Assembly (NCBI GenBank): GCA_963663165.1
Contig: OY760175.1
Location: forward strand, 5,472,001 to 5,536,000
Direction: 5' to 3'
DNA: 64,000 bases
Origin: an uncultured Desulfospira sp.
GTDB lineage: Bacteria > Desulfobacterota > Desulfobacteria > Desulfobacterales > Desulfobacteraceae
Of the stretch, positions 7,572 to 38,456 are shown piece after piece; position 1 is the stretch's first letter, and each line of letters opens with the position of its first letter. A program made the position numbers and the translations under genes. A model generated the notes under the pieces. That model ran no database searches, was not told the DNA's origin, and worked only from the letters and a program-made list of their open reading frames with translations.

Positions 7572-8997
7572 GATCAATCTCCTCCAGGGAACAAATGGCC
7601 AGAACATCATGAAAAATAGTTCTGCCTTTTTTAAACGGGTTTTCAAGACCAAGCTTCATTACATAATTTTCAGAGGTTATTTCCCTGATCCGGGTCAGCA
7701 GAAAATCTGCGTTCCCGGGGTCGTCGTGAAGGGCGGACAGCCATTTGCGCAGCCCGGATTTGGGGGCACCTGGTTCTTTAATAAGCCTGACCTTGTCTTG
7801 CAGTTCTTTAATTGAAATCAATGTATCCGGTACATGGTCATCAATCCCATAGGGGCCGTACTGAAGGGAGTTATCTCCGGCGGTCAGTTCTCTTTTTGTG
7901 ATGGTGGCGTAATCATCTACAAAACTAGAATGTACTTTATGAAACATAAGGCTGGCTGCAACCTGATCCGAGCCTGATTGCCGGGATTTAAGCTTTGCAA
8001 AGGCGCATAACTGCTCCGCCATATCAACACCATAATGGAAAGGAAAGCTGTCCTTAATATAGGCTATGCCGGCACATGCTGTGATCCGGTTTTCCTTGCC
8101 GAAATGAAAGGCTGTCAGGTCCTGGAAATTTTTCAAAAATGATTGTGTGAAGTCCAATGCCAGGTCCGCCCTGCAGATAACAGTCAGGTCATCACCGCCA
8201 AGCACAACCGGTCGAATTTGATATTCTTCTCTATTGTTATTTTGGAAATCTCTTTCTATTACAGCATCAAATGCGGCCTGGGCAGCGCCTATCGTGGATA
8301 GATCCAGTTTTTCCGAAAATTCACTGAACTGTTTGACATTAAATTCATTCCGGGCACTATTCATTCGCTGGATGGTTCTTCCCAGACTGTTACCGTCGGC
8401 GTGGATCACCGCCACCCAGGAATTAACACCTGAAATGTCTTCCATATTTTTTGAAAAATTTTTCCCGGATTCTTTTGCAAGTTTTTGGACCAAGGTCGTC
8501 TGCTCTTTTTCAAATTTAAGTTTTGCCCTGGTGCTGTTATCAAGAAATTCCCGATCAAAATAGACAGCCGATTTACCGGTCCGGGGAGCCCTTGTTATTG
8601 CCAGTCCGGAAACATCCAACTGCGGAAATGCCCGATTCCTTTCTGATTTCAGTTTATCCTCAAGCACATTGATATGAGTACTGGATATCTGATCCCCGGC
8701 TTCGACCTGGGTAAGCTCCACCACCGCCTGGGATATGGTGATGCCCGGTGCTGTTTCCATAACGGTTTTAGGAAACAGGCGGACAAGCTTTTCCAATCCC
8801 TGCCGTTCCTTGGAAAACAGTTTGATATTTCCGGCAGCTTTTAAGAGGATCTCCACGTCATTATCAATGAATTTTTTAAAAAGCCGTGTGGAAATATATT
8901 CCACGATCTCGCTTGCACCAATGACCTCTCTGAGCCGGTCAGTTTCAAATATAAACCCCTGAATCCCCTGAACTGCCGCTCCGTATAAATATCCCAT
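7546..8997 (-). CDS. cas10: Compact Cas10 with palm domains only (no HD nuclease domain)
   Basis: Begins directly with GIQGFIF..L....GASE; contains AVIHADGNSLG and intact VLGGDDL; 483 aa. Confidence 0.92.
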   Translation of the reverse strand: MGYLYGAAVQGIQGFIFETDRLREVIGASEIVEYISTRLFKKFIDNDVEILLKAAGNIKLFSKERQGLEKLVRLFPKTVMETAPGITISQAVVELTQVEAGDQISSTHINVLEDKLKSERNRAFPQLDVSGLAITRAPRTGKSAVYFDREFLDNSTRAKLKFEKEQTTLVQKLAKESGKNFSKNMEDISGVNSWVAVIHADGNSLGRTIQRMNSARNEFNVKQFSEFSEKLDLSTIGAAQAAFDAVIERDFQNNNREEYQIRPVVLGGDDLTVICRADLALDFTQSFLKNFQDLTAFHFGKENRITACAGIAYIKDSFPFHYGVDMAEQLCAFAKLKSRQSGSDQVAASLMFHKVHSSFVDDYATITKRELTAGDNSLQYGPYGIDDHVPDTLISIKELQDKVRLIKEPGAPKSGLRKWLSALHDDPGNADFLLTRIREITSENYVMKLGLENPFKKGRTIFHDVLAICSLEEIDHDDNNMQN

Positions 8998-9036
8998 GAT
9001 GTGCCCTCCTGTTCGGATTTAAAAATGAAAATTCAT

Positions 9037-10266
9037 TTATTCTTTATCCATTCGTTTGAGCCGTAATGTCTCAAGAAGCGTTTTTATATCAAGTATCTCC
9101 ATTATTTTTTCATTTTCCCTGTCTGCCTGCTCCGCAGATATCATTTTCACCTTGTTTTTCTTACCTTTTTGAATAAAAACCGAATGGGGCTGACCAGTAA
9201 CTGCCAAAAGTTTGCTTTTTAGCTCATTCAATTTAAACGGCTGCAGTCTTGCTTCTTTACCCTTGTCTCCATAAGCGGTCCAGAACGCTTCATCTTCCAG
9301 ATCTTCCTTCATGTATGGAATTATCAACCAGAACTGTCCGTATACACCGGTGGCTCTTTCCAAATTATATAATCGGGCGTCCTCATCCTTTTGTCCAAAT
9401 TGTCCTGTTTTAGCATCCAGAATAATCAATGTTCCAAAGTCAGTCACAAGGACTATGTCCCATTCGGCAATTTCGACTCCCCGGCCGTCCTTAACCCGAA
9501 CATTTGCCCAGGCTTCATTTACATGATGTGCTTCAGGGTTTTCTGCCAGTATCTTTACCACCTCAAACTGTACGACCCGCTCAAAATAGTCAGCAAATCC
9601 TTTTGGATATTTTTCAAGCAATGACGGTTTTTCGCCTTCATGGGTTAGACTCCATTCGATCAGTTTTTTTCTGCAGTTTTGATCCCAAAATTCGTTTACA
9701 TCAGCATACTCAGGAATTTCATGAGAAGGCTGCATCTGTGTAGTTCGTTTCCACAACAGGCAAGGGGTATTATTTTTTTGCTGATCTAAAGCGAATATTT
9801 TTAAGATCATCTCAATATTAACTGCCGTATTAAGGGAGACAGCCCGGCTCAACAAATTTGCTCCGTCACTTGTTATTTTAAAAATTTTTCTACTTTGGGG
9901 ATCTGCATAACAGGCCCAATCAGCCAATCCGCATCCTAACCTTTCATGAAATACCCTGAAAGAAGCCAACTGCTGCATTTTCTGACCACCTCCAATATTC
10001 CAGCAAACTGGACGGTCTGAATCAACAGCCCCCTTGATTTGCGGAAGCATTTCCTCCAGTTCTGTTCCCTCACCTATAGGGCAGACCAATACTTTTTTCC
10101 CCTGATCTTCCACAACCGTACGAATACCTTTCGACCATTCCTCCTTGGCTGCGAAGTTTGTCTCCAATAAAATCAGAAGGTCCATATCAAACTGTAAAAA
10201 CGGCAAAATATTAACTGTATTCTGCCTGGTGGAAATGCACACCATTGCTTTGGGTTCTTGTTCCAT
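9037..10266 (-). CDS. CARF + PD-(D/E)xK nuclease effector (Card1/Can2-like)
   Basis: N-terminal Rossmann-like CARF (CISTRQNTVNILP...WNIGGGQKM); C-terminal FE...EWDIVL...LIILDAKTG restriction-endonuclease motif; lies between cas6 and cas10. Confidence 0.8.
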   Translation of the reverse strand: MEQEPKAMVCISTRQNTVNILPFLQFDMDLLILLETNFAAKEEWSKGIRTVVEDQGKKVLVCPIGEGTELEEMLPQIKGAVDSDRPVCWNIGGGQKMQQLASFRVFHERLGCGLADWACYADPQSRKIFKITSDGANLLSRAVSLNTAVNIEMILKIFALDQQKNNTPCLLWKRTTQMQPSHEIPEYADVNEFWDQNCRKKLIEWSLTHEGEKPSLLEKYPKGFADYFERVVQFEVVKILAENPEAHHVNEAWANVRVKDGRGVEIAEWDIVLVTDFGTLIILDAKTGQFGQKDEDARLYNLERATGVYGQFWLIIPYMKEDLEDEAFWTAYGDKGKEARLQPFKLNELKSKLLAVTGQPHSVFIQKGKKNKVKMISAEQADRENEKIMEILDIKTLLETLRLKRMDKE

Positions 10267-10377
10267 TCATCAGCCCCTATTGTTTCCCTTATTTCATGGG
10301 TTGTTTATACTCAAATATGTAAACCAACTCAGATAGTTTACCCTATAAAATCTATTTAACTTTTTGTTTTCATAGGT

Positions 10378-11313
10378 TTATATTGTCTCATCCACCTCAA
10401 TCATCCCTAGCCCGAAAAACGTATTCTTCCCCGCGTGGACGATCCGGGCCATGTCAAGAAAGGGCATGAAGGGGCCAAGGTTTCCCTGGTAGGAGATCCG
10501 GCCCACCAGGCCGCCCATGGCCATTTTTTTGTCCTGGCGGGCGGAGTAGCGCTGCCAGTCGAACCAGGACAGGCTATTGTCCGTTACCTTGATCTCGCCG
10601 GCTTTTCTGACCAGCTCCGGGTAATCCAGATCGGGCTCTCCATTGCCATAGGTGTTGAACAGGGCCGTACACCGCCGGACCAGGGAGCGAATCAGCAGGT
10701 CAAAGGGCAGGTCGGGGGGATTTGTGGGGTTCCCGTTTACCCTGAAAGGGGTTTTGATGTTAAGGGTGATCCGGTCCGTGTCCCGGTCCGGACAGCCGGA
10801 AAGGGTGAATTCCGGCAGGCAGGACGGCAGGGTGACGCGGCCGTCCTGTCTCGTGTAGACCGGCTCTCCTTCATGGGTGACGGATTCAAGAGTGAAACCG
10901 GCCCGCCGGCCCTGAACCTTTTTGCCCAGGCCGATCTTGCCCATCTGGTCAAAGGCGTAAATAAAATAGGGCAGGTTTTGGTTAAGGGCTCCGAAAAGAA
11001 CCAGGCCGCAGTTAAGAAATTCTCCGGATGCGAAATCGGTTTTCAGGGTTAAGGGCGGCTCTAAGACCATGGGGCAGGGTGGTGCCGATATCCGGCTGTT
11101 TTCAGGGGCCGGCAGGGCATGGGCGGTTTCAAAGACCAGGGCGTAGGTACAGCTGGACCTTAAAATGCACGAGGGGCACGCCTGGTTTTTAAGGGCGCAG
11201 ACGGTTCTCTTGAGTGCATGGCCGAAAAGGCCTCTGAAGGTGGAGCCTTTGTACCGGGGAAGGGACGCATCCCGGTTGAGCTTGATCTGAAAAGTGTAGT
11301 TTCCGTATTCCAT
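10378..11313 (-). CDS. cas6: CRISPR pre-crRNA processing endoribonuclease Cas6
   Basis: GSTFRGLFGHALK, C..C....C.Y, DWQRYS.RQ and G-rich loop HAGKNTFFGLG. Confidence 0.92.
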   Translation of the reverse strand: MEYGNYTFQIKLNRDASLPRYKGSTFRGLFGHALKRTVCALKNQACPSCILRSSCTYALVFETAHALPAPENSRISAPPCPMVLEPPLTLKTDFASGEFLNCGLVLFGALNQNLPYFIYAFDQMGKIGLGKKVQGRRAGFTLESVTHEGEPVYTRQDGRVTLPSCLPEFTLSGCPDRDTDRITLNIKTPFRVNGNPTNPPDLPFDLLIRSLVRRCTALFNTYGNGEPDLDYPELVRKAGEIKVTDNSLSWFDWQRYSARQDKKMAMGGLVGRISYQGNLGPFMPFLDMARIVHAGKNTFFGLGMIEVDETI

Positions 11314-11600
11314 AAGATAAGGTTCCCGTTCAAAAAGGGTTGTTGTCTCTTTTTTACTTATACGGAGTTCGACAGATTGGTTTTAAAAAAAAATTACAAT
11401 CCGGCTTGTACAAAACAAAACTGCTTGAAGCTGATAGGAAATTAAGAACAATTTTGTTTGTTCTGCTTAATCATCTTTTGCTTGGCGTGTCAACAATTTA
11501 TGGAAGCTTCGTAGCATACTTTTGCTATGTGAGAAGGCCTTAAATGAGCGAAGATGGGGCACTGCTGAACAGTTACAATCCGTTTTGATCAGCGTCAGGG

Positions 11601-12071
11601 TTACATATCCGGAACGGTTTTGGTCAGGCAGATCAGGTTGGTGAATGACCAGTTCTGGTCCTGGTAGAATTTAAGGGCAGGGGGGTTGTCTTTATCGGCC
11701 AGAAGCCAGATATGGAAAATTCCTTTTGCCCGGCACCAGGCATAGGCCCCCTGGATCAGCGCTTTGCCTATGCCGTTGCCCCGGCAGGATTCGTCCACCA
11801 CCAGGTCTTCGAGGATGGCACATTGCTTTGCCTTTGCCGTGGAAATCCGGGTCTGGACCGAACACATTCCTTTGACCTGGCCGTTGAGGCAGGCCACCTG
11901 GATGGTCCGGTTGCCGCTGTTTTGTTCAAGCATCATGGCCAGCCCTTTATGCTGGACGTTGGCGTCAAACACAAAATCCTTTTCAATGGAAAACAGCTGT
12001 CTGAGCAAATCGACCAGACAGGGAATATCAGCGGGGACGGCGGATCTTATCTCTATAGCGGCTGGGTTCAT
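11601..12071 (-). CDS. GNAT-family N-acetyltransferase
   Basis: LVVDESCRGNGIGKALI acetyl-CoA motif; N..A..FY. Confidence 0.9.
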   Translation of the reverse strand: MNPAAIEIRSAVPADIPCLVDLLRQLFSIEKDFVFDANVQHKGLAMMLEQNSGNRTIQVACLNGQVKGMCSVQTRISTAKAKQCAILEDLVVDESCRGNGIGKALIQGAYAWCRAKGIFHIWLLADKDNPPALKFYQDQNWSFTNLICLTKTVPDM

Positions 12072-30621: not shown

Positions 30622-31843
<1,222 letters not shown>

Positions 31844-31851
<8 letters not shown>

Positions 31852-32608
31852 ATCCTATATTAGAGAAAAACTTGGAACCAAAGACATCCTGCTCATGACC
31901 CACATTGTCATGGGGTATCCGTCCTTTGACGATTCTTTTGCCATTGTAAAGGAAATGGTTGAGGCCGGGGTGGACTTAATGGAACTTCAGATTCCTTTTT
32001 CCGAACCCATGGCCGACGGCCCCGTTATTTTAAAGGCTAACCAGTCCGCCCTTGAAGCCGGCGCCACCGTGGCCCAATGTTTCGACTTTGCCCAACGGGT
32101 GGCCGGCGAGTTTGACATTCCCTTTCTATTTATGTCTTACGCCAACATTGCCTTTCGGCTCGGCTTTGACACCTTTGCTGAAAAGACTGCGGCCATAAAC
32201 CTGAAAGGGGCCATTGTGCCCGACCTTCCCCCGGAAGAGGGACAGGATTATATTGATGCCATGAACCGGCACCACCTGTGCCCCATCCATATTTTTTCTC
32301 CTGAAACCAGTGACCGGAGAATGGCCGAAATTGATGCGGTATCTTCCGGATTTATCTACTGCCTGGCCAGAAAAGGGGTCACGGGCAAAGAAACCGCTTT
32401 TTCCGACGAGCTTGCCGTCTATCTCCACCGGTGCCGGAACGCCACGCGCCTTCCGTTAGCTGTTGGGTTCGGGGTCAAAGACAGGGATGACATCCAATAC
32501 CTCAAGGGCAAAACCGATATTGCCGTGATCGGCTCTCAGACCATCCGGGTTGTGGAAGAGCAGTGCCCCCGGGCCGTGGGGGACTTTATCCGGCATCTGG
32601 TGCGGTGA
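31844..32608 (+). CDS. trpA: Tryptophan synthase alpha subunit
   Basis: ELQIPFSEPMADGPVI, PDLPPEE, GVTG, VGFG. Confidence 0.95.
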
Positions 32609-32776
32609 GGTGTTTCCATATCCCCTGAATATCCTATGGGAACTGGGTTTAAAATAATAAGCTTTATCTCCAATTATGTAGCGTGTTTGATTATGTTGTG
32701 AGTTTTATTCATTTTTATTCAAAAAGATTTTTCAAATCTTTCATTTTATTCGTATAATTCCAAATCATATGCATAG

Positions 32777-32850
32777 AAAAAGCCCGGAGTAGCCCCTCCG
32801 GGCTTTGATTGTGAACTCCCGTCGATAGCCGGAGAAGCCCACACACACAG
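32777..32850 (-). ncRNA. Candidate small divergent RNA in the element's left end
   Basis: Hairpin 32811-32842, then a terminator hairpin AAAGCCCGGAG-n6-CTCCGGGCTTT with a U-tract on the minus strand; possible TTGCAG...TGATATAGA promoter upstream. Confidence 0.35.
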
Positions 32851-32901
32851 TTATATTTCTATATCATTTTCCGGTTATCTGCAATACCGGAAAAATCTAA
32901 A

Positions 32902-33288
32902 ATGCTTTTAATTCCAAATACATGCCGATGGTGCCATTTCGTATTTTTTGTTTGCAGGTTCTGCTGGAGAGGGCAGGCCTATTGTTGCAGGGACTGCCGT
33001 AAGGCCGGAATCCTCAGAAACAAAAGAGAAGCACAGCGACGATACCGCCAGACCGAGAAGGGGAAAAGACGGCATCGGGAAGCCGAGAACCGGCGTCGGC
33101 ATCGAAAAAAAATTCAAGAGACAAAAAACATGGATGATACAGCTTCCACAGTGCTGCCTGCTTGGTGTAGGACAATAATATTGTGGATTTTGTTTCAGAT
33201 TCAGGGCCTTCCAATCAAACCATATTGTCAGTTCTGCGGCTCTTCAGGTCAAGTCGTCACACAATTTCCCCGGCGGGGATATGGATAA
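32902..33288 (+). CDS. Cys-rich, highly basic zinc-finger-like protein
   Basis: CxxC-x6-CxxC-RGQAYC-x3-C followed by an Arg/Lys-rich helix; C-terminal CxxC; 8-nt overlap with the next ORF. Confidence 0.7.
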   Translation: MLLIPNTCRWCHFVFFVCRFCWRGQAYCCRDCRKAGILRNKREAQRRYRQTEKGKRRHREAENRRRHRKKIQETKNMDDTASTVLPAWCRTIILWILFQIQGLPIKPYCQFCGSSGQVVTQFPRRGYG

Positions 33289-33721
33289 ACGTAAAAACTG
33301 GAGGCGCGGCATGGTAAAAAAAGAAATCCTGAACCCTTCAAGGGTGCGTTGTATCAAAGGAGGATTTAGTTTTATCCCCCATCGGTTTCTTACGGGTGGA
33401 TTTTTGCGAGCATTAAGCCGGGACGAGTTGTTATTGTATTTTTTCCTGGTTCTGGCCGGTGACCGCAACGGATTAAGTTTTTACAGTTATGATAAAATAT
33501 GCACCCTGCTAAAAATGCAACTGGACCAGTACATTGAAGCTCGGGATGGATTGATGGAAAATGATCTGATTGCCTTTGACGGCACCATTTACCAGGTGCT
33601 TTCCTTACCGGCCAACCTTATACAATCTGCTGTACAAAAAAAATCTTCCCTGAACAGCCGTCAACCTGAATCAGTTGGAAAAATTTTGAGCAAACTGGTT
33701 ATGGAGGCCGATCATGGTTGA
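33281..33721 (+). CDS. Putative winged-helix/HTH protein (replication-initiator-like N-terminus)
   Basis: ELLLYFFL...GLSFYSYDKICTLL...ARDGL...LI pattern; 8-nt overlaps with both neighbours. Confidence 0.7.
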   Translation: MDKRKNWRRGMVKKEILNPSRVRCIKGGFSFIPHRFLTGGFLRALSRDELLLYFFLVLAGDRNGLSFYSYDKICTLLKMQLDQYIEARDGLMENDLIAFDGTIYQVLSLPANLIQSAVQKKSSLNSRQPESVGKILSKLVMEADHG

Positions 33722-34631
33722 GCAGACACCCAAAAGTCCGCCCGGTTATGATCTGGATCAGATCCGCCGGGATTATCTGGACCATATGCTTAAAATCAAG
33801 GAAAGCTCTCCTTCTCAAACCTGTTGCAGGACCAAAATTATCAAAGCGTTTGACAGTTATCTGCAAACATCGGGAGTCTCACTGGTCAATATAAACATAG
33901 GGCATGTTGATGATTTTCTGGCAAGGTTCAATGCCCCATATGCAAAGAGTACCCAGGGGGTATACCGTTCCTGTTTTCGAGGCTTTTTGCACTACCTGTA
34001 TAATGAACGGCATTTGATCCAACAGAATTTAGCCCCGCTTGTGACCGGTCCGCCAATGTTTGCTCAAGTCAAGCCTCCTAAATTTTTAAGACCCGGTGAA
34101 GTCCGTCAGTTATTTGATCATTTGCCCTGTGCAACATCCAAAGAGCTTCGTGTCTATGCACAGGTTCACCTGGCTTATTATCTTGGATTGCGCCCCATTG
34201 AAATCAGCCGCCTTACTCTGGACGATATCTGTTTTGCCAAAGGACTGCTAAACCTGGAAAACACAAAAAATGCAAAGCCCCTTCAATTGCCCATTCCCGA
34301 TGAAGTTATCAAAGCAATCACCGCTTATATCGTTGGAGGCAGGCCTAAAAGTCAGTCTCGCTCTCTTTTTTTAACCAGCCATTGCCCACCTTACAGAGCT
34401 GTAAGTGCCTGGCTCACCAGGCACGATTTAACAAAGGCGTTGCGGGCTGCCGGTCTTCCCGGTACAGGATATTGGCTGCGCCACACCTTTGCACAAAACA
34501 TGCTGGAAGCAGGTGCCGGCATTTTTGAAATCAAAGAAATGATGGGGCATTCCATCATTGATTCCACAAAAGTATATCTAAGTATCCACAAGGAATTGAT
34601 GCGCCGGGTGTTGTTCGATGAAACCGTTTAA
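33714..34631 (+). CDS. Tyrosine recombinase (RitA-like)
   Basis: LGLRPIEI, YWLRHTFA, MGH...T.VY. Confidence 0.9.
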   Translation: MVEQTPKSPPGYDLDQIRRDYLDHMLKIKESSPSQTCCRTKIIKAFDSYLQTSGVSLVNINIGHVDDFLARFNAPYAKSTQGVYRSCFRGFLHYLYNERHLIQQNLAPLVTGPPMFAQVKPPKFLRPGEVRQLFDHLPCATSKELRVYAQVHLAYYLGLRPIEISRLTLDDICFAKGLLNLENTKNAKPLQLPIPDEVIKAITAYIVGGRPKSQSRSLFLTSHCPPYRAVSAWLTRHDLTKALRAAGLPGTGYWLRHTFAQNMLEAGAGIFEIKEMMGHSIIDSTKVYLSIHKELMRRVLFDETV

Positions 34632-35592
34632 AAGCTTTTTGGCCACAGAGATGGAAAACTTTATTGTTTACCGGCAAGGACTGGGATACAGTTGCCATAT
34701 GCTCCGGTGGGCCTTGCTTACCTTTGACGATTTTTTAATGAGGCAGCCGGATCTCTCAGACATTTGGATGCCCCATTTTTATATCACCTTTAAAAATGAG
34801 ATTGGCCTTGAGCCCTCCGGCGTAGCCAGCATTCTAAATGTAGTTCGAGGCTTTTTTGATTATCTGAAACGGCAGCGGATAAATCTTGATAACCCTTTGA
34901 AAGATGTGACCGCTCCGGCCCGGCGCACCTTCATCCCCTTTATATTCTCACCGGAGCAGGTAGAAATGTTACTGGGGGTGGTATGCGGACGGATCCGGCA
35001 AACCCCTATGCGGTTCCTTAAAGATTACAGTGAATATCTGGTGATCCTTCTGCTTGCCCGCTGTGGGCTGAGGATGAATGAACCCTTGCGCCTGAGATTG
35101 AAAAATTACCGGCCGGATGAAAAGACGATTTACATAGAGAAAACCAAGTTCAAAAAGGACCGTCTTATCCCTATTCCAAAATCAACTGCCATGCAGATTG
35201 ACAACTATCTTTCAACCAGGGCCGCTTTAATTGAAAACGATATGAATCCCTACCTGTTCATGGGGATAGGGGAAAACGGCTTGAACGATAACCGTATTCG
35301 CTCTGTTTTTCACGATGCTGTGCGTCAAATCGGGATCCGCCGCCCAAGGAAAATTATCGGCGACACGACCTTTGGGAAGCCCACTCCGCACTGTTTACGG
35401 CACTCTTTTGCCATTAACACCTTGAAGGCAGCCATTGCCCGGAAACAATCACCCCGGAATGTGCTGCCGGTGCTTGCCGGCTATATGGGTCATGTTGAGT
35501 ATAAATACACCATGGAATATTTGAAAGCAGTTGATGCTGAAAGCCGCGACAGCCTGTTCAAATTTACCACCGGCAGAAGGGATGAATCATGA
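34618..35592 (+). CDS. Tyrosine recombinase (RitB-like)
   Basis: CGLRMNE, TKFKKDR, HCLRHSFA, LAGYMGH...T..YL. Confidence 0.92.
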   Translation: MKPFKSFLATEMENFIVYRQGLGYSCHMLRWALLTFDDFLMRQPDLSDIWMPHFYITFKNEIGLEPSGVASILNVVRGFFDYLKRQRINLDNPLKDVTAPARRTFIPFIFSPEQVEMLLGVVCGRIRQTPMRFLKDYSEYLVILLLARCGLRMNEPLRLRLKNYRPDEKTIYIEKTKFKKDRLIPIPKSTAMQIDNYLSTRAALIENDMNPYLFMGIGENGLNDNRIRSVFHDAVRQIGIRRPRKIIGDTTFGKPTPHCLRHSFAINTLKAAIARKQSPRNVLPVLAGYMGHVEYKYTMEYLKAVDAESRDSLFKFTTGRRDES

Positions 35593-36608
35593 ACCTGACC
35601 CGTTGCGTTGTTCAATTTTTTGACCAATACCTGCCTTATGTCAAAGGGTGCCGCCCCAATACGATCAAAAGTTACCGGGATACCATGCGCTTTTTTTTAC
35701 CGTTTGCTGCCGAATACCACAGCGTAAAGGTCAGTTCGCTCAATCTGGAACATATCACGGTAGAATTAATTTTGCAGTTTCTCAATGAGCTTGAATCCAA
35801 ACGGTCCAACACGGCTAAAACCCGGAACCAGCGCCTGGCCGTTTTAAAGTCTTTTGCCAAAATGATCCGTTTTATTTATCCCGAGCAACAAAAACTGACC
35901 AATGCGATCCTTGATATTCCCCGGAAACGAAGCCAACACAAGTTGATCGGATTTTTGTATCCCCAGGAGATCAATCAAATCCTTAATGCGGTCCAACTTA
36001 AAAGAAAGGACGGGTTCCGAGATTATACCCTTCTGTATCTATTATATGATACCGGTGCCAGGGCAACGGAAATCGCTACCCTTGAGATGGATTATTTTGA
36101 TTATGAAAATCAAACTCTGGCGATTCTTGGGAAGGGTAACCGATATCGACAAGTTCAGTTGCTTGGGAAAACAGTAGAGCTTATGCATCAGTATATTGAA
36201 GAACATCGCAATACGCCAATCCATCCGTTTAAAAAAAGGCTGTTCATCAACCAAAGAGGAACAAGCTTGACCCGCCACGGTATCAACCGGATCTGTAAAA
36301 ACTACCTTGAACAGGCTTTACCGGCAAAGCGGACAGCGACCATGCACCCCGTCCATAGCTTCCGTCATTCGTGTGCCGTTCGAATGCTCTCAGAGGATCG
36401 GCCTTTATCTGAAATTAAGAATCGCTTGGGGCATTCTAATGTCAAATCCACAATGGTTTACTTAAAGCTTGATCTAGGCCAGAAGCGACATTTACAAGAG
36501 AACTTCATCCAGTTCACCAAACAGCACCTGAAATCTGATCCGAAAATTGAGGAGTTGATCCAGTGGGAAAACAAGCAAAACGTTCTTGAGTGGCTGGATA
36601 GTCTATAG
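35589..36608 (+). CDS. Tyrosine recombinase (RitC-like)
   Basis: TGARATE, GKGNR.R, HSFRHSCA, LGH....T.VY; N-terminal NTIKSYRD and TRNQRLA. Confidence 0.93.
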   Translation: MNLTRCVVQFFDQYLPYVKGCRPNTIKSYRDTMRFFLPFAAEYHSVKVSSLNLEHITVELILQFLNELESKRSNTAKTRNQRLAVLKSFAKMIRFIYPEQQKLTNAILDIPRKRSQHKLIGFLYPQEINQILNAVQLKRKDGFRDYTLLYLLYDTGARATEIATLEMDYFDYENQTLAILGKGNRYRQVQLLGKTVELMHQYIEEHRNTPIHPFKKRLFINQRGTSLTRHGINRICKNYLEQALPAKRTATMHPVHSFRHSCAVRMLSEDRPLSEIKNRLGHSNVKSTMVYLKLDLGQKRHLQENFIQFTKQHLKSDPKIEELIQWENKQNVLEWLDSL

Positions 36609-36802
36609 ATCCTTACAGACTTCATCACCAGCACTCCTCAGGGCAAACTGTAGCTGTTTATTATGTTTAGTGATTTGTTGCAAATTTGTCATACCCTTGA
36701 TAACCAACTGTTTATTTGAACGATTTTGACTTACGGCATTACGGCGCCCAAACCACGGTCAATCAAGGCTTCAGGACCGCTCGCAACATAACTCCAAAAA
36801 AT

Positions 36803-36887
36803 TGGACTTGGGACTTGGGATATGGGACTTGGGGATTGCGGCATCCACGGCCTCCCCAAGTCCCATATCCCATATCCCAAGTCTCAA
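36803..36887. repeat. Heptamer hairpin (TGGGAYW)n-loop-(WRTCCCA)n
   Basis: ~28-bp near-perfect stem; a homologous copy with a similar loop is at 42431-42510. Confidence 0.9.
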
Positions 36888-37094
36888 CAATATACATTAA
36901 AGAATTTACAAACAATGTCCAAATGCCATGCCGGATTCTAAATCCGGTTAGCCCTGGTAAATATCCGTGACAGCCTTGACGGGAACTGGCGGTTCTGATA
37001 TACGCACTTTCCTGCGGCTTCCACTGTTTGAAATGTTTCAGGGGAACGCATCACCGCATATTGGATGTAAAATGCCGTTAAATCAGGGGTAGCC

Positions 37095-38456
37095 ATGGTT
37101 CGTCCTTTCAGCGTTCTTCAAAACAGGCCGGTTGGAATGCTGCTGGCCCTGGCCCTGCCCATCTCTGTGCAATACCTTCTGACCTGTTCCATGGGGGTTG
37201 TTGACCTTCTTATGATCGGGCAGTTAAATGATACGGCCATTGCCGCTGTTGGCATTGCCAATCAAATGATCTTTGTCTTTAATGTGATTCAGTTCGGCAT
37301 TCATTCCGGGGTTGCCATTTTTACCGCCCAATACTGGGGCAAAAAAGACTTAAGCCGGATCAGACACCTGTCCGGCATTGGAATCATGTCCGGTCTTTTT
37401 GTGGCCGCCATTTTCAGTTTCACCTGCGTGGTCTTTCCCCAGGCTATCATTGGCTTGTTTTCAAAAGACCCTGAGGTGGTCCTTCTCGGGGCAGGGTATC
37501 TTCAAATTGTGGGTACGGTGTTTGGTTTCAGTGCGGTGATGTTTTCTTTTGTGTCCAATCTCAGGGCCATCGGTCATGTCAAGGCCCCCATGGTCTGTTC
37601 CATGATCGCTGTTTTATTAAATATTTCCCTGAATTATGTTTTAATTTTCGGGAAACTCGGACTGCCTGCCCTGGGGGTTACGGGTGCCGCCATGGGCACC
37701 ACGGTTTCCAAAGTTGTTGAGGCCGTGATCATGGTGGGGATTGTTTATCGGACGCGCTTACCCCTGGCGGCCGGTCTCAAGGAAATGTTCTGCTTTGACA
37801 CGGTTTTCCTTAAACGGGTCTTTGCCACCTGCTGGCCGGTGTTTCTGAACGAATTGTTCTGGGTAACCGGCGTCAGCCTCTATAAGCTGGTCTATGCCCG
37901 GATCAGTACCGAGGCCATTGCCGCAATGAATATCGTTGCCACCATTGAAGAGTTCATGTTCATTCCGTTTTTCGGCATCTTTCATGGCGGCAGTGTGATG
38001 ATCGGCAACAGCATTGGAAACGGAAAGGAACAGACCGCCTATGTCCTGGGCCGTTTTCTCCTGGTTGCCCAGATGGTCATGGCGGCCGGGGCCGGTGCGG
38101 CCGTGATTTTGTCAAGGCCGGTTGTGCTTTCGTTTTATAACATTTCCCCGGCTACCTATGAAAACGCCTATTTTCTGATGTTGGTCGCCGGTCTGGTATT
38201 CTGGGGGAAGACCACGAATTTCACCATCATCGTGTCCGTACTCAGAGGCGGCGGGGATACCCGTTTCGGCTTTTTTCTAGACCTTGCCGGTGTCTGGTGC
38301 GTCGGACTGCCCATGGCCTTTTTTTGCGCCTTTTATCTTAAACTGCCGGTCTACTGGGTGATGGCGTTTATCGCCACAGAGGAGCTTTTTAAACTGGCCA
38401 TTGGGATTCCCCGGTTTTTGTCAGGAAAGTGGATACGAAACCTGGTCAAAGCGTGA
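37095..38456 (+). CDS. MATE-family efflux transporter
   Basis: LALP, D..MIGQL, AQYWG, LRAIG....PM, LRGGGDT; 12 TM segments. Confidence 0.93.
   Translation: MVRPFSVLQNRPVGMLLALALPISVQYLLTCSMGVVDLLMIGQLNDTAIAAVGIANQMIFVFNVIQFGIHSGVAIFTAQYWGKKDLSRIRHLSGIGIMSGLFVAAIFSFTCVVFPQAIIGLFSKDPEVVLLGAGYLQIVGTVFGFSAVMFSFVSNLRAIGHVKAPMVCSMIAVLLNISLNYVLIFGKLGLPALGVTGAAMGTTVSKVVEAVIMVGIVYRTRLPLAAGLKEMFCFDTVFLKRVFATCWPVFLNELFWVTGVSLYKLVYARISTEAIAAMNIVATIEEFMFIPFFGIFHGGSVMIGNSIGNGKEQTAYVLGRFLLVAQMVMAAGAGAAVILSRPVVLSFYNISPATYENAYFLMLVAGLVFWGKTTNFTIIVSVLRGGGDTRFGFFLDLAGVWCVGLPMAFFCAFYLKLPVYWVMAFIATEELFKLAIGIPRFLSGKWIRNLVKA

Follow-up and report, generated by a model that had tools for sequence, protein, structure and literature searches.

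A RIT-kind element in a Desulfospira genome: dif-like ends, a preferred target and six travelling base pairs

What do the six bases CTCCAA represent that stand on both sides of a five-gene element in the genome of an uncultured Desulfospira sp., and how does this element move? It lies at 32668..36797 of a 64,000-nt stretch (contig OY760175.1, positions 5,472,001 to 5,536,000; here called the window, to which coordinates refer unless a genome position is given), in an interval occupied by five forward open reading frames (ORFs): two accessory genes, ORF1 and ORF2, and three tyrosine recombinase genes, Y1 to Y3. An original prediction, made from the letters of the window, had described a precisely bounded recombinase-trio element, the joined ends of which would form a dif-like site. 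The follow-up reported here leads us to regard the element as a transposon of the RIT (recombinase-in-trio) kind that is probably active now or was so very recently, moves by way of its joined ends and carries 6 bp along.

Element ends, copies and the fate of the six base pairs

Eight full copies of the element occur in the genome (6.74 Mb, one contig), each exactly 4118 bp long from TTATGT to CATAA, with 0-6 differences between copies, in eight different contexts. Similarity among them starts at TTATGT in all eight and either stops after the right 6-mer or continues into a repeat having solo copies of its own. The window copy spans 32674-36791, from TTATGTAGCG (32674-32683) to CGCAACATAA (36782-36791), with CTCCAA on each side (32668..32673 and 36792..36797). 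This 6-mer stands left of seven copies and right of seven, the right one reading CTTCAA in the copy c5. A 4130-bp Logan contig from the runs of a second study covers exactly 32668-36797 (4-5 differences), and left-end matches in two other genera of the family begin at base 32674 (92% in G011, 81% in G020). The bounds drawn originally, CTCCAA repeat included, are thus the limits found in the eight copies and in the 4130-bp contig, and such a boundary pattern and copy number are far beyond chance.

The copy c8 reveals what the 6-mers are. Its apparent left flank, GTAGGG, is the end of a 1539-bp insertion sequence (IS) sitting on the element's first TTAT; with the IS removed, the 6-mers of c8 are CTAATA (left) and CTCCAA (right), 3 of the 6 bases being common. 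c8 splits a minus-strand gene for a PIN-domain protein, the right flank encoding 27 residues plus 1 nt and the left flank 2 nt followed by LDKLEY…. Ten PIN homologues from other genomes (L114-L123, a set that excludes L124, with an internal stop, and weaker matches) all have exactly 28 residues before LDKLE, and the unbroken gene therefore held CTAATA only. By this reconstruction, the c8 insertion added 4118 + 6 bp. The six base pairs are not a target duplication: one copy travels and ends up on the RitC side (36792..36797 in the window), while the target's own 6 bp stay on the ORF1 side (32668..32673), and the usual look of a direct repeat arises only from the preferred target having the same 6-mer. 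The 6-mer as a direct repeat, as first described, accordingly holds for most copies and fails for c8, for c5 and for one copy of a sister lineage (type C, below).

A 6-bp target duplication made by staggered cuts, or a spread of copies by segmental duplication, would produce the perfect 6-bp direct repeat seen at six of the eight copies. We give this reading hardly any credence, as the same 6-mer recurs at all copies of a lineage, whereas the 7-bp duplications of an IS21-type element in the same genome, serving as a control, differ among all five copies; moreover, c8 lacks a duplication, and the flanks past the 6-mer or repeat are unrelated.

The 1539-bp IS has seven copies (genome positions 5567002-5568540, plus six other places), with inverted ends beginning CCCTACAACGTGACTTA and 4-bp duplications (TTAA, CTAT, TTAT). 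c8 differs by 1 nt from the window copy and from the copy c7, both of which have CTCCAA on the left. These three lie within 88 kb (genome positions 5504500-5592516) in one orientation, 0-1 nt apart, a clustering that suggests local hopping. No PIN paralogue was found in the same genome, and no empty site for c7 or c8 was found in two congeners: the flanks of c7 match paralogous repeats only, and those of c8 have no match near the insertion.

The joined ends and their targets

The terminal arms are short. The left one, L1 (TTATGTAGCGTG, 32674..32685, plus strand), contains the first element base, where identity of the eight copies begins, and is kept in relatives; the right one, R1 (CTCGCAACATAA, 36780..36791, minus strand), is an inverted copy of L1 that, by copy comparison, contains the last element base. 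The two are complementary at 9 of 10 positions, or at 10 of 12 over 12 nt (TTATGTAGCGTG vs the complement of CTCGCAACATAA). Extra TTATGT motifs at 32691 and 36661 belong to two direct copies of the arm motif (repeat family D2): L2 (TTATGTTGTGAG, 32691..32702, plus strand), 17 nt inside the left end and kept at the same spacing in relatives, and R2 (TTATGTTTAGTG, 36661..36672, plus strand), ~130 nt from the right end, where relatives have TTATGTTG. Both the 9/10 arms and the additional TTATGT motifs had been noted before and are confirmed.

In other genera, relatives have retained the arms TTATGYAGCGGGTTTGATTATGTTGTGAG … CTCGCAACATAA, which enclose 6-mers of their own: GATAAT, TGCAAG, GGCAAG, GGTATG, GTCAAG, CGATAT, GAGCTC and GGGACR. 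Among 13 distinct loci with both sides readable (L036 and L037 counted as one site), the left and right 6-mers are identical in 10 and differ by 1 nt in three (L030, L088, L093). Across 36 complete loci screened, 20 possess CRCAACATAA 176-182 nt past the RitC stop. Two more RIT lineages, with four copies each and 42-54% protein identity to the window's, occur in the same genome and carry the same arm motifs, such that its three lineages are marked by CTCCAA, GTCTAT (type B; genome positions 8863-11721, 2334462-2337320, 2618607-2621465 and 4929472-4932330) and TGGTAT (type C; 2323339-2326606, 2717921-2721188, 5974139-5977406 and 6731986-6735253). GTCTAT flanks all four type-B copies on both sides, in four unrelated contexts; three type-C copies read TGGTAT/TGGTAT and one TGGCAT/TACTAT.

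The inner part of the arms, ATAA-N6-TTATGT, is identical in the dif sites that PMC3025954 prints for E. coli, B. subtilis and Frankia, in line with the dif-like arms of the original prediction. Because the arms are kept while the 6-mer varies by lineage, as in Xer/dif core sites, the data support the view of the 6-bp flank as a crossover region enclosed by inverted arms. The arrangement right arm-6 bp-left arm, predicted earlier as a junction, therefore appears well supported as a site, with arms kept and a lineage-specific 6-mer in the three lineages of this genome and at the 13 loci elsewhere; from it we infer a circular form. Near G000:C1:2337500, directly after the terminal ...CTCGCAACATAA-GTCTAT of one type-B copy, stands TTATGTTGTGTG, which resembles a left arm; this right arm-6 bp-left arm junction within the chromosome is one of 41 matches in a genome scan for NATAA-N6-TTATG.

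Could the joined ends simply be a pseudo-dif for the host's XerC/XerD, as in IMEX-like elements, with the encoded recombinases accessory or decayed? The match of the inner arms to dif sites speaks for this, as does the Xer-like character of the recombinases in NCBIfam scans, although they score far below the XerC/XerD cut-offs. We rate such host-driven movement as very improbable, for the element encodes three recombinases whose catalytic residues persist across lineages at 42-76% identity, and insertion sites are many, none being tied to a chromosomal dif (none of the 41 scan matches was assigned as dif). IMEX elements, furthermore, integrate at the host dif and are not known to have a recombinase of their own, whereas three are encoded here, and the eight insertions are at repeats or in genes.

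Next to the window copy lies a palindromic interspersed repeat (36798..36899; arms 36805-36835 and 36853-36883, 31 nt, 94% complementary), which reads GGGACTTGGGATATGGGACTTGGGG...CCCCAAGTCCC, falls into several subfamilies with longer common flanks and occurs at ~123 loci of the genome as well as in the congener G001. Six of the eight copies, the window's included, sit at the same edge of this repeat in the same orientation. At that edge, 35 repeats have CTCCAA and six CTTCAA, six of these 41 being occupied; solo repeat copies contain one CTCCAA each, and the genome as a whole has 1946 occurrences of this 6-mer. The target is thus not simply AT-rich, as had been supposed. Of the other two copies, c7 is in the middle of a ~125-bp attC-like imperfect palindrome, of which 14 empty paralogues have a single CTCCGA-like 6-mer.

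Arrays of the attC-like unit occur near 4.18-4.19, 5.57-5.61 and 1.86-1.92 Mb of the genome, and such arrays adjoin an integron integrase gene (genome positions 4194663-4195604, L126; 456 bits, above the TIGR02249 cut-off). The copy c6 is 1.9 kb from the integrase, and a partial second integrase-like match was noted at 5540264-5540770.

These targets invite a different mechanism, in which the element moves as a folded single strand or a hairpin (as in integrons, attC x attI, or by way of RIT hairpin intermediates) and the repeats are recognised as hairpins rather than as double-stranded sequence. Seven of the eight copies are indeed at or in hairpin-forming repeats (six at the palindromic repeat, one in the attC-like one), and a passage of PMC5737581 reports raised mobilome coverage of RIT elements without detectable circles and suggests hairpin-structured intermediates. 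Yet c8 is in ordinary coding sequence devoid of a palindrome, the element ends form a dif-like inverted pair only once joined, terminal repeats of 10-12 nt are too short for a stable end hairpin, and copies at the main repeat are inserted outside its stem, so that we consider this route unlikely.

Alternatively, integration might be conservative, lambda- or Xer-like, and need an identical 6-bp core, c8 being a rare accident at a secondary site. This would fit the identical flanking 6-mers at 13 of the 16 RIT copies in this genome and at 10 of 13 loci elsewhere, along with the same or near-identical 6-mer in empty paralogous targets. Against it, c8 entered CTAATA, matching CTCCAA in half of its bases, and both 6-mers were kept unmixed; one type-C copy reads TGGCAT/TACTAT vs the TGGTAT of its siblings; GTCTAT on both sides in four unrelated type-B contexts is easier to obtain with a carried copy; and eight persisting copies speak against simple cut-and-paste between att sites. 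Overall, we judge conservative integration to be a minor possibility, and prefer movement of the joined ends together with a carried 6-mer.

The window copy has trpA (31784-32608) and a gene for a MatE transporter (37095-38456) as its neighbours. The empty trpA-MATE site with one CTCCAA that had been expected was not encountered in the congener G001, whose spacer measures a few dozen bases and has neither the repeat nor CTCCAA, even though repeats with CTCCAA are present elsewhere in G001 and the element of this lineage is absent. The empty site once written out for this locus is real as a class, represented by the solo repeats, but is not the ancestral state of the locus. Six public runs contain the stretch as assembled contigs, and the single skip across the element belongs to a trpA-MATE allele like that of the congener, in which 68 other letters separate the two sides. 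Beyond the RIT element and the repeat, the trpA-MatE spacer is ~240 nt longer than in G001 (32599-32667 and 36900-37068), and an inverted pair (32601-32617 / 37042-37058, 82% complementary) marks the bounds of the addition. A larger insertion resembling a miniature inverted-repeat transposable element may have brought the palindromic repeat between trpA and MatE.

Recombinase trio, accessory genes and leader

Y1 (33714..34631, plus strand, 305 aa), Y2 (34618..35592, plus strand, 324 aa) and Y3 (35589..36608, plus strand, 339 aa) each match Pfam Phage_integrase (E 1.4e-23, 1e-17 and 7.5e-30, respectively). Overlaps amount to 8 nt for ORF2/Y1, 14 nt for Y1/Y2 and 4 nt for Y2/Y3; a passage of PMC3414803 gives 4-8 bp for gene overlaps in RIT trios and names pHG1 of C. 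necator H16 as rich in such trios. Searches with Y3 returned full-length matches of ~32% identity on Cupriavidus, Burkholderia and Rhizobium plasmids, located in overlapping recombinase trios of 402-420, 325-327 and 336-343 aa. An all-against-all BLAST with the trios of pHG1 and a Rhizobium plasmid yielded colinear best matches (Y1 with RitA at E 1e-30, residues 3-299 on RitA 99-392; Y2 with RitB at E 7e-20; Y3 with RitC at E 8e-58 over the full length), cross-matches being at least 9 orders of magnitude weaker with both reference trios. Although identities to these trios are only 25-33% and subfamilies were assigned via two reference trios rather than published subfamily profiles, the best matches bear out the RIT-type trio proposed at the outset, with the order A-B-C, adjacent genes on one strand and short overlaps as in RIT elements.

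The alignments add subfamily traits. Beyond its catalytic domain, Y3 continues for 45 aa and can be aligned to pHG1 RitC at ...LEWLxSL, and an extra conserved C-terminal helix is given as the RitC hallmark in a passage of PMC8138268; the insertion that RitB shows ahead of LPVLAxYMGH recurs in Y2. Each of the three proteins contains the catalytic Arg, Lys, Arg, His and Tyr, the pattern R...HxxR...H/W...Y being complete in Y2 and Y3; in Y1, Tyr replaces the first His of HxxR, as it does in a 402-aa cousin. Two successive N-terminal core-binding domains are the RitA hallmark according to the same source, whereas Y1 lacks the extra N-terminal domain of ~100 residues and has one SAM-like domain. 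Farther relatives of the same family possess a 402-aa Y1 (L080).

Upstream of the trio, ORF1 (32902..33288, plus strand, 128 aa) aligns as a Cys-rich Zn-ribbon with a basic helical hairpin and a C-terminal CxxC...FPRRGYG. Seventeen aligned homologues (49-70% identity) exhibit 38 invariant columns, including seven Cys, the basic helix and FPRRGYG; judged from this alignment, ORF1 is a real gene. Its 169 relatives in the protein database are all without a name, as are its clusters in the Atlas, and it has no Pfam, NCBIfam or fold match (best fold E 6.5; mean predicted local distance difference test, pLDDT, of the model 78.6).

ORF2 (33311..33721, plus strand, 136 aa) resembles a winged-helix DNA-binding protein. 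Its start is most likely 33311, which has GGAGG 6 nt before it and gives the 136 aa of most of the 120 homologues listed, rather than the alternative ATG at 33281; the gap between ORF1 and ORF2 is therefore 22 nt, and the overlap originally claimed for all five ORFs applies to three of the four junctions, not to ORF1/ORF2. ORF2 has 7342 relatives at E ≤ 0.001, 38 invariant columns in a 30-sequence alignment and a weak Pfam HTH_36 match. The core of an AF2 model folds as a winged helix (pLDDT 78-90 there, 63 for the whole model), with generic winged-helix neighbours only in Foldseek (Crp/Fnr, RepA_N; best E 0.04). The idea that ORF2 is a split-off N-terminal domain of RitA went unsupported (BLAST E 0.9-1.5).

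The company kept by ORF2 was surveyed at the best 80 of 213 confirmed relatives' loci. A RitA homologue is directly 3′ of ORF2 in 60 of them; 45 of these have ORF2-RitA-RitB-RitC complete and ordered, and the other 15 end at contig ends. A match to an ORF1 hidden Markov model lies directly 5′ of ORF2 in 23 of the 80, and loci without ORF1 have a different Cys-rich ORF of 140-146 aa at that place. Eighteen loci lack RitA despite at least 1.5 kb of downstream sequence, and 17 of these (10 from one metagenome-assembled genome) have IS21-family IstA and IstB instead; two loci were not judgeable. The accessory genes hence co-occur with the trio, as proposed, but are not a trait of the trio only.

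The same genome contains a 4.5-kb IS21-family element in five copies (G000:C1:5260386-5266681, L125, plus four other places), headed by an ORF1+ORF2 pair (42-46% identity) and also carrying IstA (rve + Mu-transpos_C_2), IstB and a 278-aa ORF without a Pfam match. Because these genes also accompany the DDE machinery of IS21-family elements, a part in strand exchange is less likely for ORF1 and ORF2 than a regulatory role or one as architectural DNA-binding proteins. A role in selecting the repeat as target was discarded for the pair, given that the IS21-type element with both genes lands at unrelated 7-mers.

A sigma-70-like promoter (TTCAAA-16 nt-TATAAT, 32731..32758, plus strand) is predicted from a consensus match of 10/12, and TATAAT and its neighbourhood are kept in relatives. 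Three leader hairpins follow that are kept in eight related elements, two pairs changing on both sides. Hairpin 1 (32779..32806, plus strand) has an 11-bp stem, terminator-like on both strands, with one covarying pair (C-G in four sequences, U-A in four). Hairpin 3 (32865..32896, plus strand), just 5′ of the ORF1 start, has nine pairs, one of them changed on both sides, and is predicted to pair with the GGAGG ribosome-binding site before ORF1 in relatives. Taken together, the conserved hairpins uphold the structured leader of the original prediction, and comparative alignment points to a folded RNA with modest covariation. An Rfam scan of 32500-37100 gave seven matches, all far under gathering scores.

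Proposed movement and comparison with known systems

In the scheme that we propose, the three Xer-like recombinases, ORF1 and ORF2 would be expressed from one operon behind the promoter and leader, the latter probably holding expression low. The ends would then meet in the order right arm, 6 bp, left arm (...CTCGCAACATAA-CTCCAA-TTATGTAGCG...), a junction that would resemble a dif/Xer core, with a 6-bp exchange region flanked by a pair of inverted binding arms. The partner of this junction in recombination would be a site in the chromosome, by preference one where CTCCAA precedes WAWAAT at one edge of the hairpin repeat, and always in one orientation. Whether the element leaves by copy-out or cut-out, which site each recombinase cleaves and how a circle might form we infer at most.

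Several observations weigh against this scheme. Carry-over was fully reconstructed in one case, c8. The copy c5, with CTCCAA on the left and CTTCAA on the right, has its odd 6-mer on the opposite side, beside a repeat type that exists with CTTCAA, which fits heteroduplex or later mutation equally; c5 and the odd type-C copy (TGGCAT/TACTAT) are compatible with carry-over and also with a Tn916-like heteroduplex. As the orthologous site in G001 lacks the target, the window copy has no before/after pair. Insertion can do without the hairpin, given that c7 and c8 are away from the main repeat, and the short motif of the target right of the 6-mer was read by eye from eight sites. Y1, without the RitA-defining N-terminal domain and with Tyr in HxxR, may be impaired or specialised. 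The public data are assembled contigs, in which the circle junction and the excised site were unseen and which carry no weight on circles.

More generally, RIT elements might be footprint-carrying transposons with a private dif-like site, an inherited 6-mer that goes unchecked, targeting of hairpin bases including attC-like ones and a portable Zn-ribbon/winged-helix module, a generalisation that we offer tentatively and hold to be somewhat less probable than its opposite. If it were true, the central 6 bp of each copy would record the flank of its donor. RIT elements are widespread, the accessory ORF2 family by itself comprising more than 7000 sequence clusters. To our knowledge, the movement of a RIT element has never been reproduced or explained. 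The Desulfospira genome constitutes a natural experiment, with 16 young copies of three lineages whose ends are resolved to the base pair, a predicted junction sequence, dozens of empty targets and one insertion lacking a target duplication. The sharing of ORF1/ORF2 between RIT and IS21 elements suggests a function in control or architecture independent of transposition chemistry.

Among known systems, the RIT elements of Cupriavidus and other Proteobacteria are closest. Shared are three co-oriented, overlapping recombinase genes in the order A-B-C, the RitC helix, TTATGT in the ends and several near-identical copies per genome. RitA here differs in having 305 rather than 402-420 aa and in lacking the first of two N-terminal domains, and the terminal inverted repeats measure 10-12 nt vs 34-51 nt (34 bp and 47-51 bp in passages of PMC10214605 and PMC5737581; the pHG1 RIT inverted repeat has 35 nt, 83%, with a TTATGT motif inside). 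Two genes precede the trio, whereas the pHG1 and Rhizobium trios show none there. By gene content and order, the element belongs to the known RIT kind as an atypical relative; it is a variant of a described system, not the undescribed system first suspected. New are the short dif-like ends, the RitA without its N-terminal domain and the two conserved accessory genes. The passages covered of PMC10214605, PMC8138268, PMC5737581 and PMC3414803 mention neither accessory genes nor a 6-bp centre nor a preferred target; the claim of novelty is limited to these passages, and earlier data on RIT ends or targets may exist elsewhere.

Tn554, SEs (strand-biased circularizing integrative elements) and GInts likewise combine several tyrosine recombinases with a small protein. 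According to a passage of PMC10214605, Tn554 and SEs make no target duplication and leave 6 bp of the donor's left flank at the right of the new insertion, and c8 displays a 6-bp carry-over of this kind, its direction here coming from one case. Recombinase subfamilies and gene order differ, the small genes being upstream here and downstream there, and cargo is carried by SEs and GInts, which are islands, but is absent from this element. Pfam and NCBIfam scans detected none of the TnpA-TnpB-TnpC, IntA-Tfp-IntB-Srap or GinA-D families in the element, the sole related NCBIfam match being GmtY (E 0.002-0.006).

With XerC/XerD-dif and the pseudo-dif sites of plasmids or phages, the element has in common the 11-6-11 layout and the inner bases ATAA-N6-TTATGT (PMC3025954), as well as 'simple', Xer-like recombinases in the sense of a passage of PMC8138268. 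In contrast to dif, the site here exists only when the ends are joined, its outer arm bases differ, its central 6 bp vary by lineage, and three dedicated recombinases are encoded. IS21-family elements, finally, also carry ORF2, and in this genome the ORF1+ORF2 pair, directly upstream of their transposition genes, but combine it with a DDE IstA and an ATPase IstB, long inverted ends and arbitrary 7-bp duplications.

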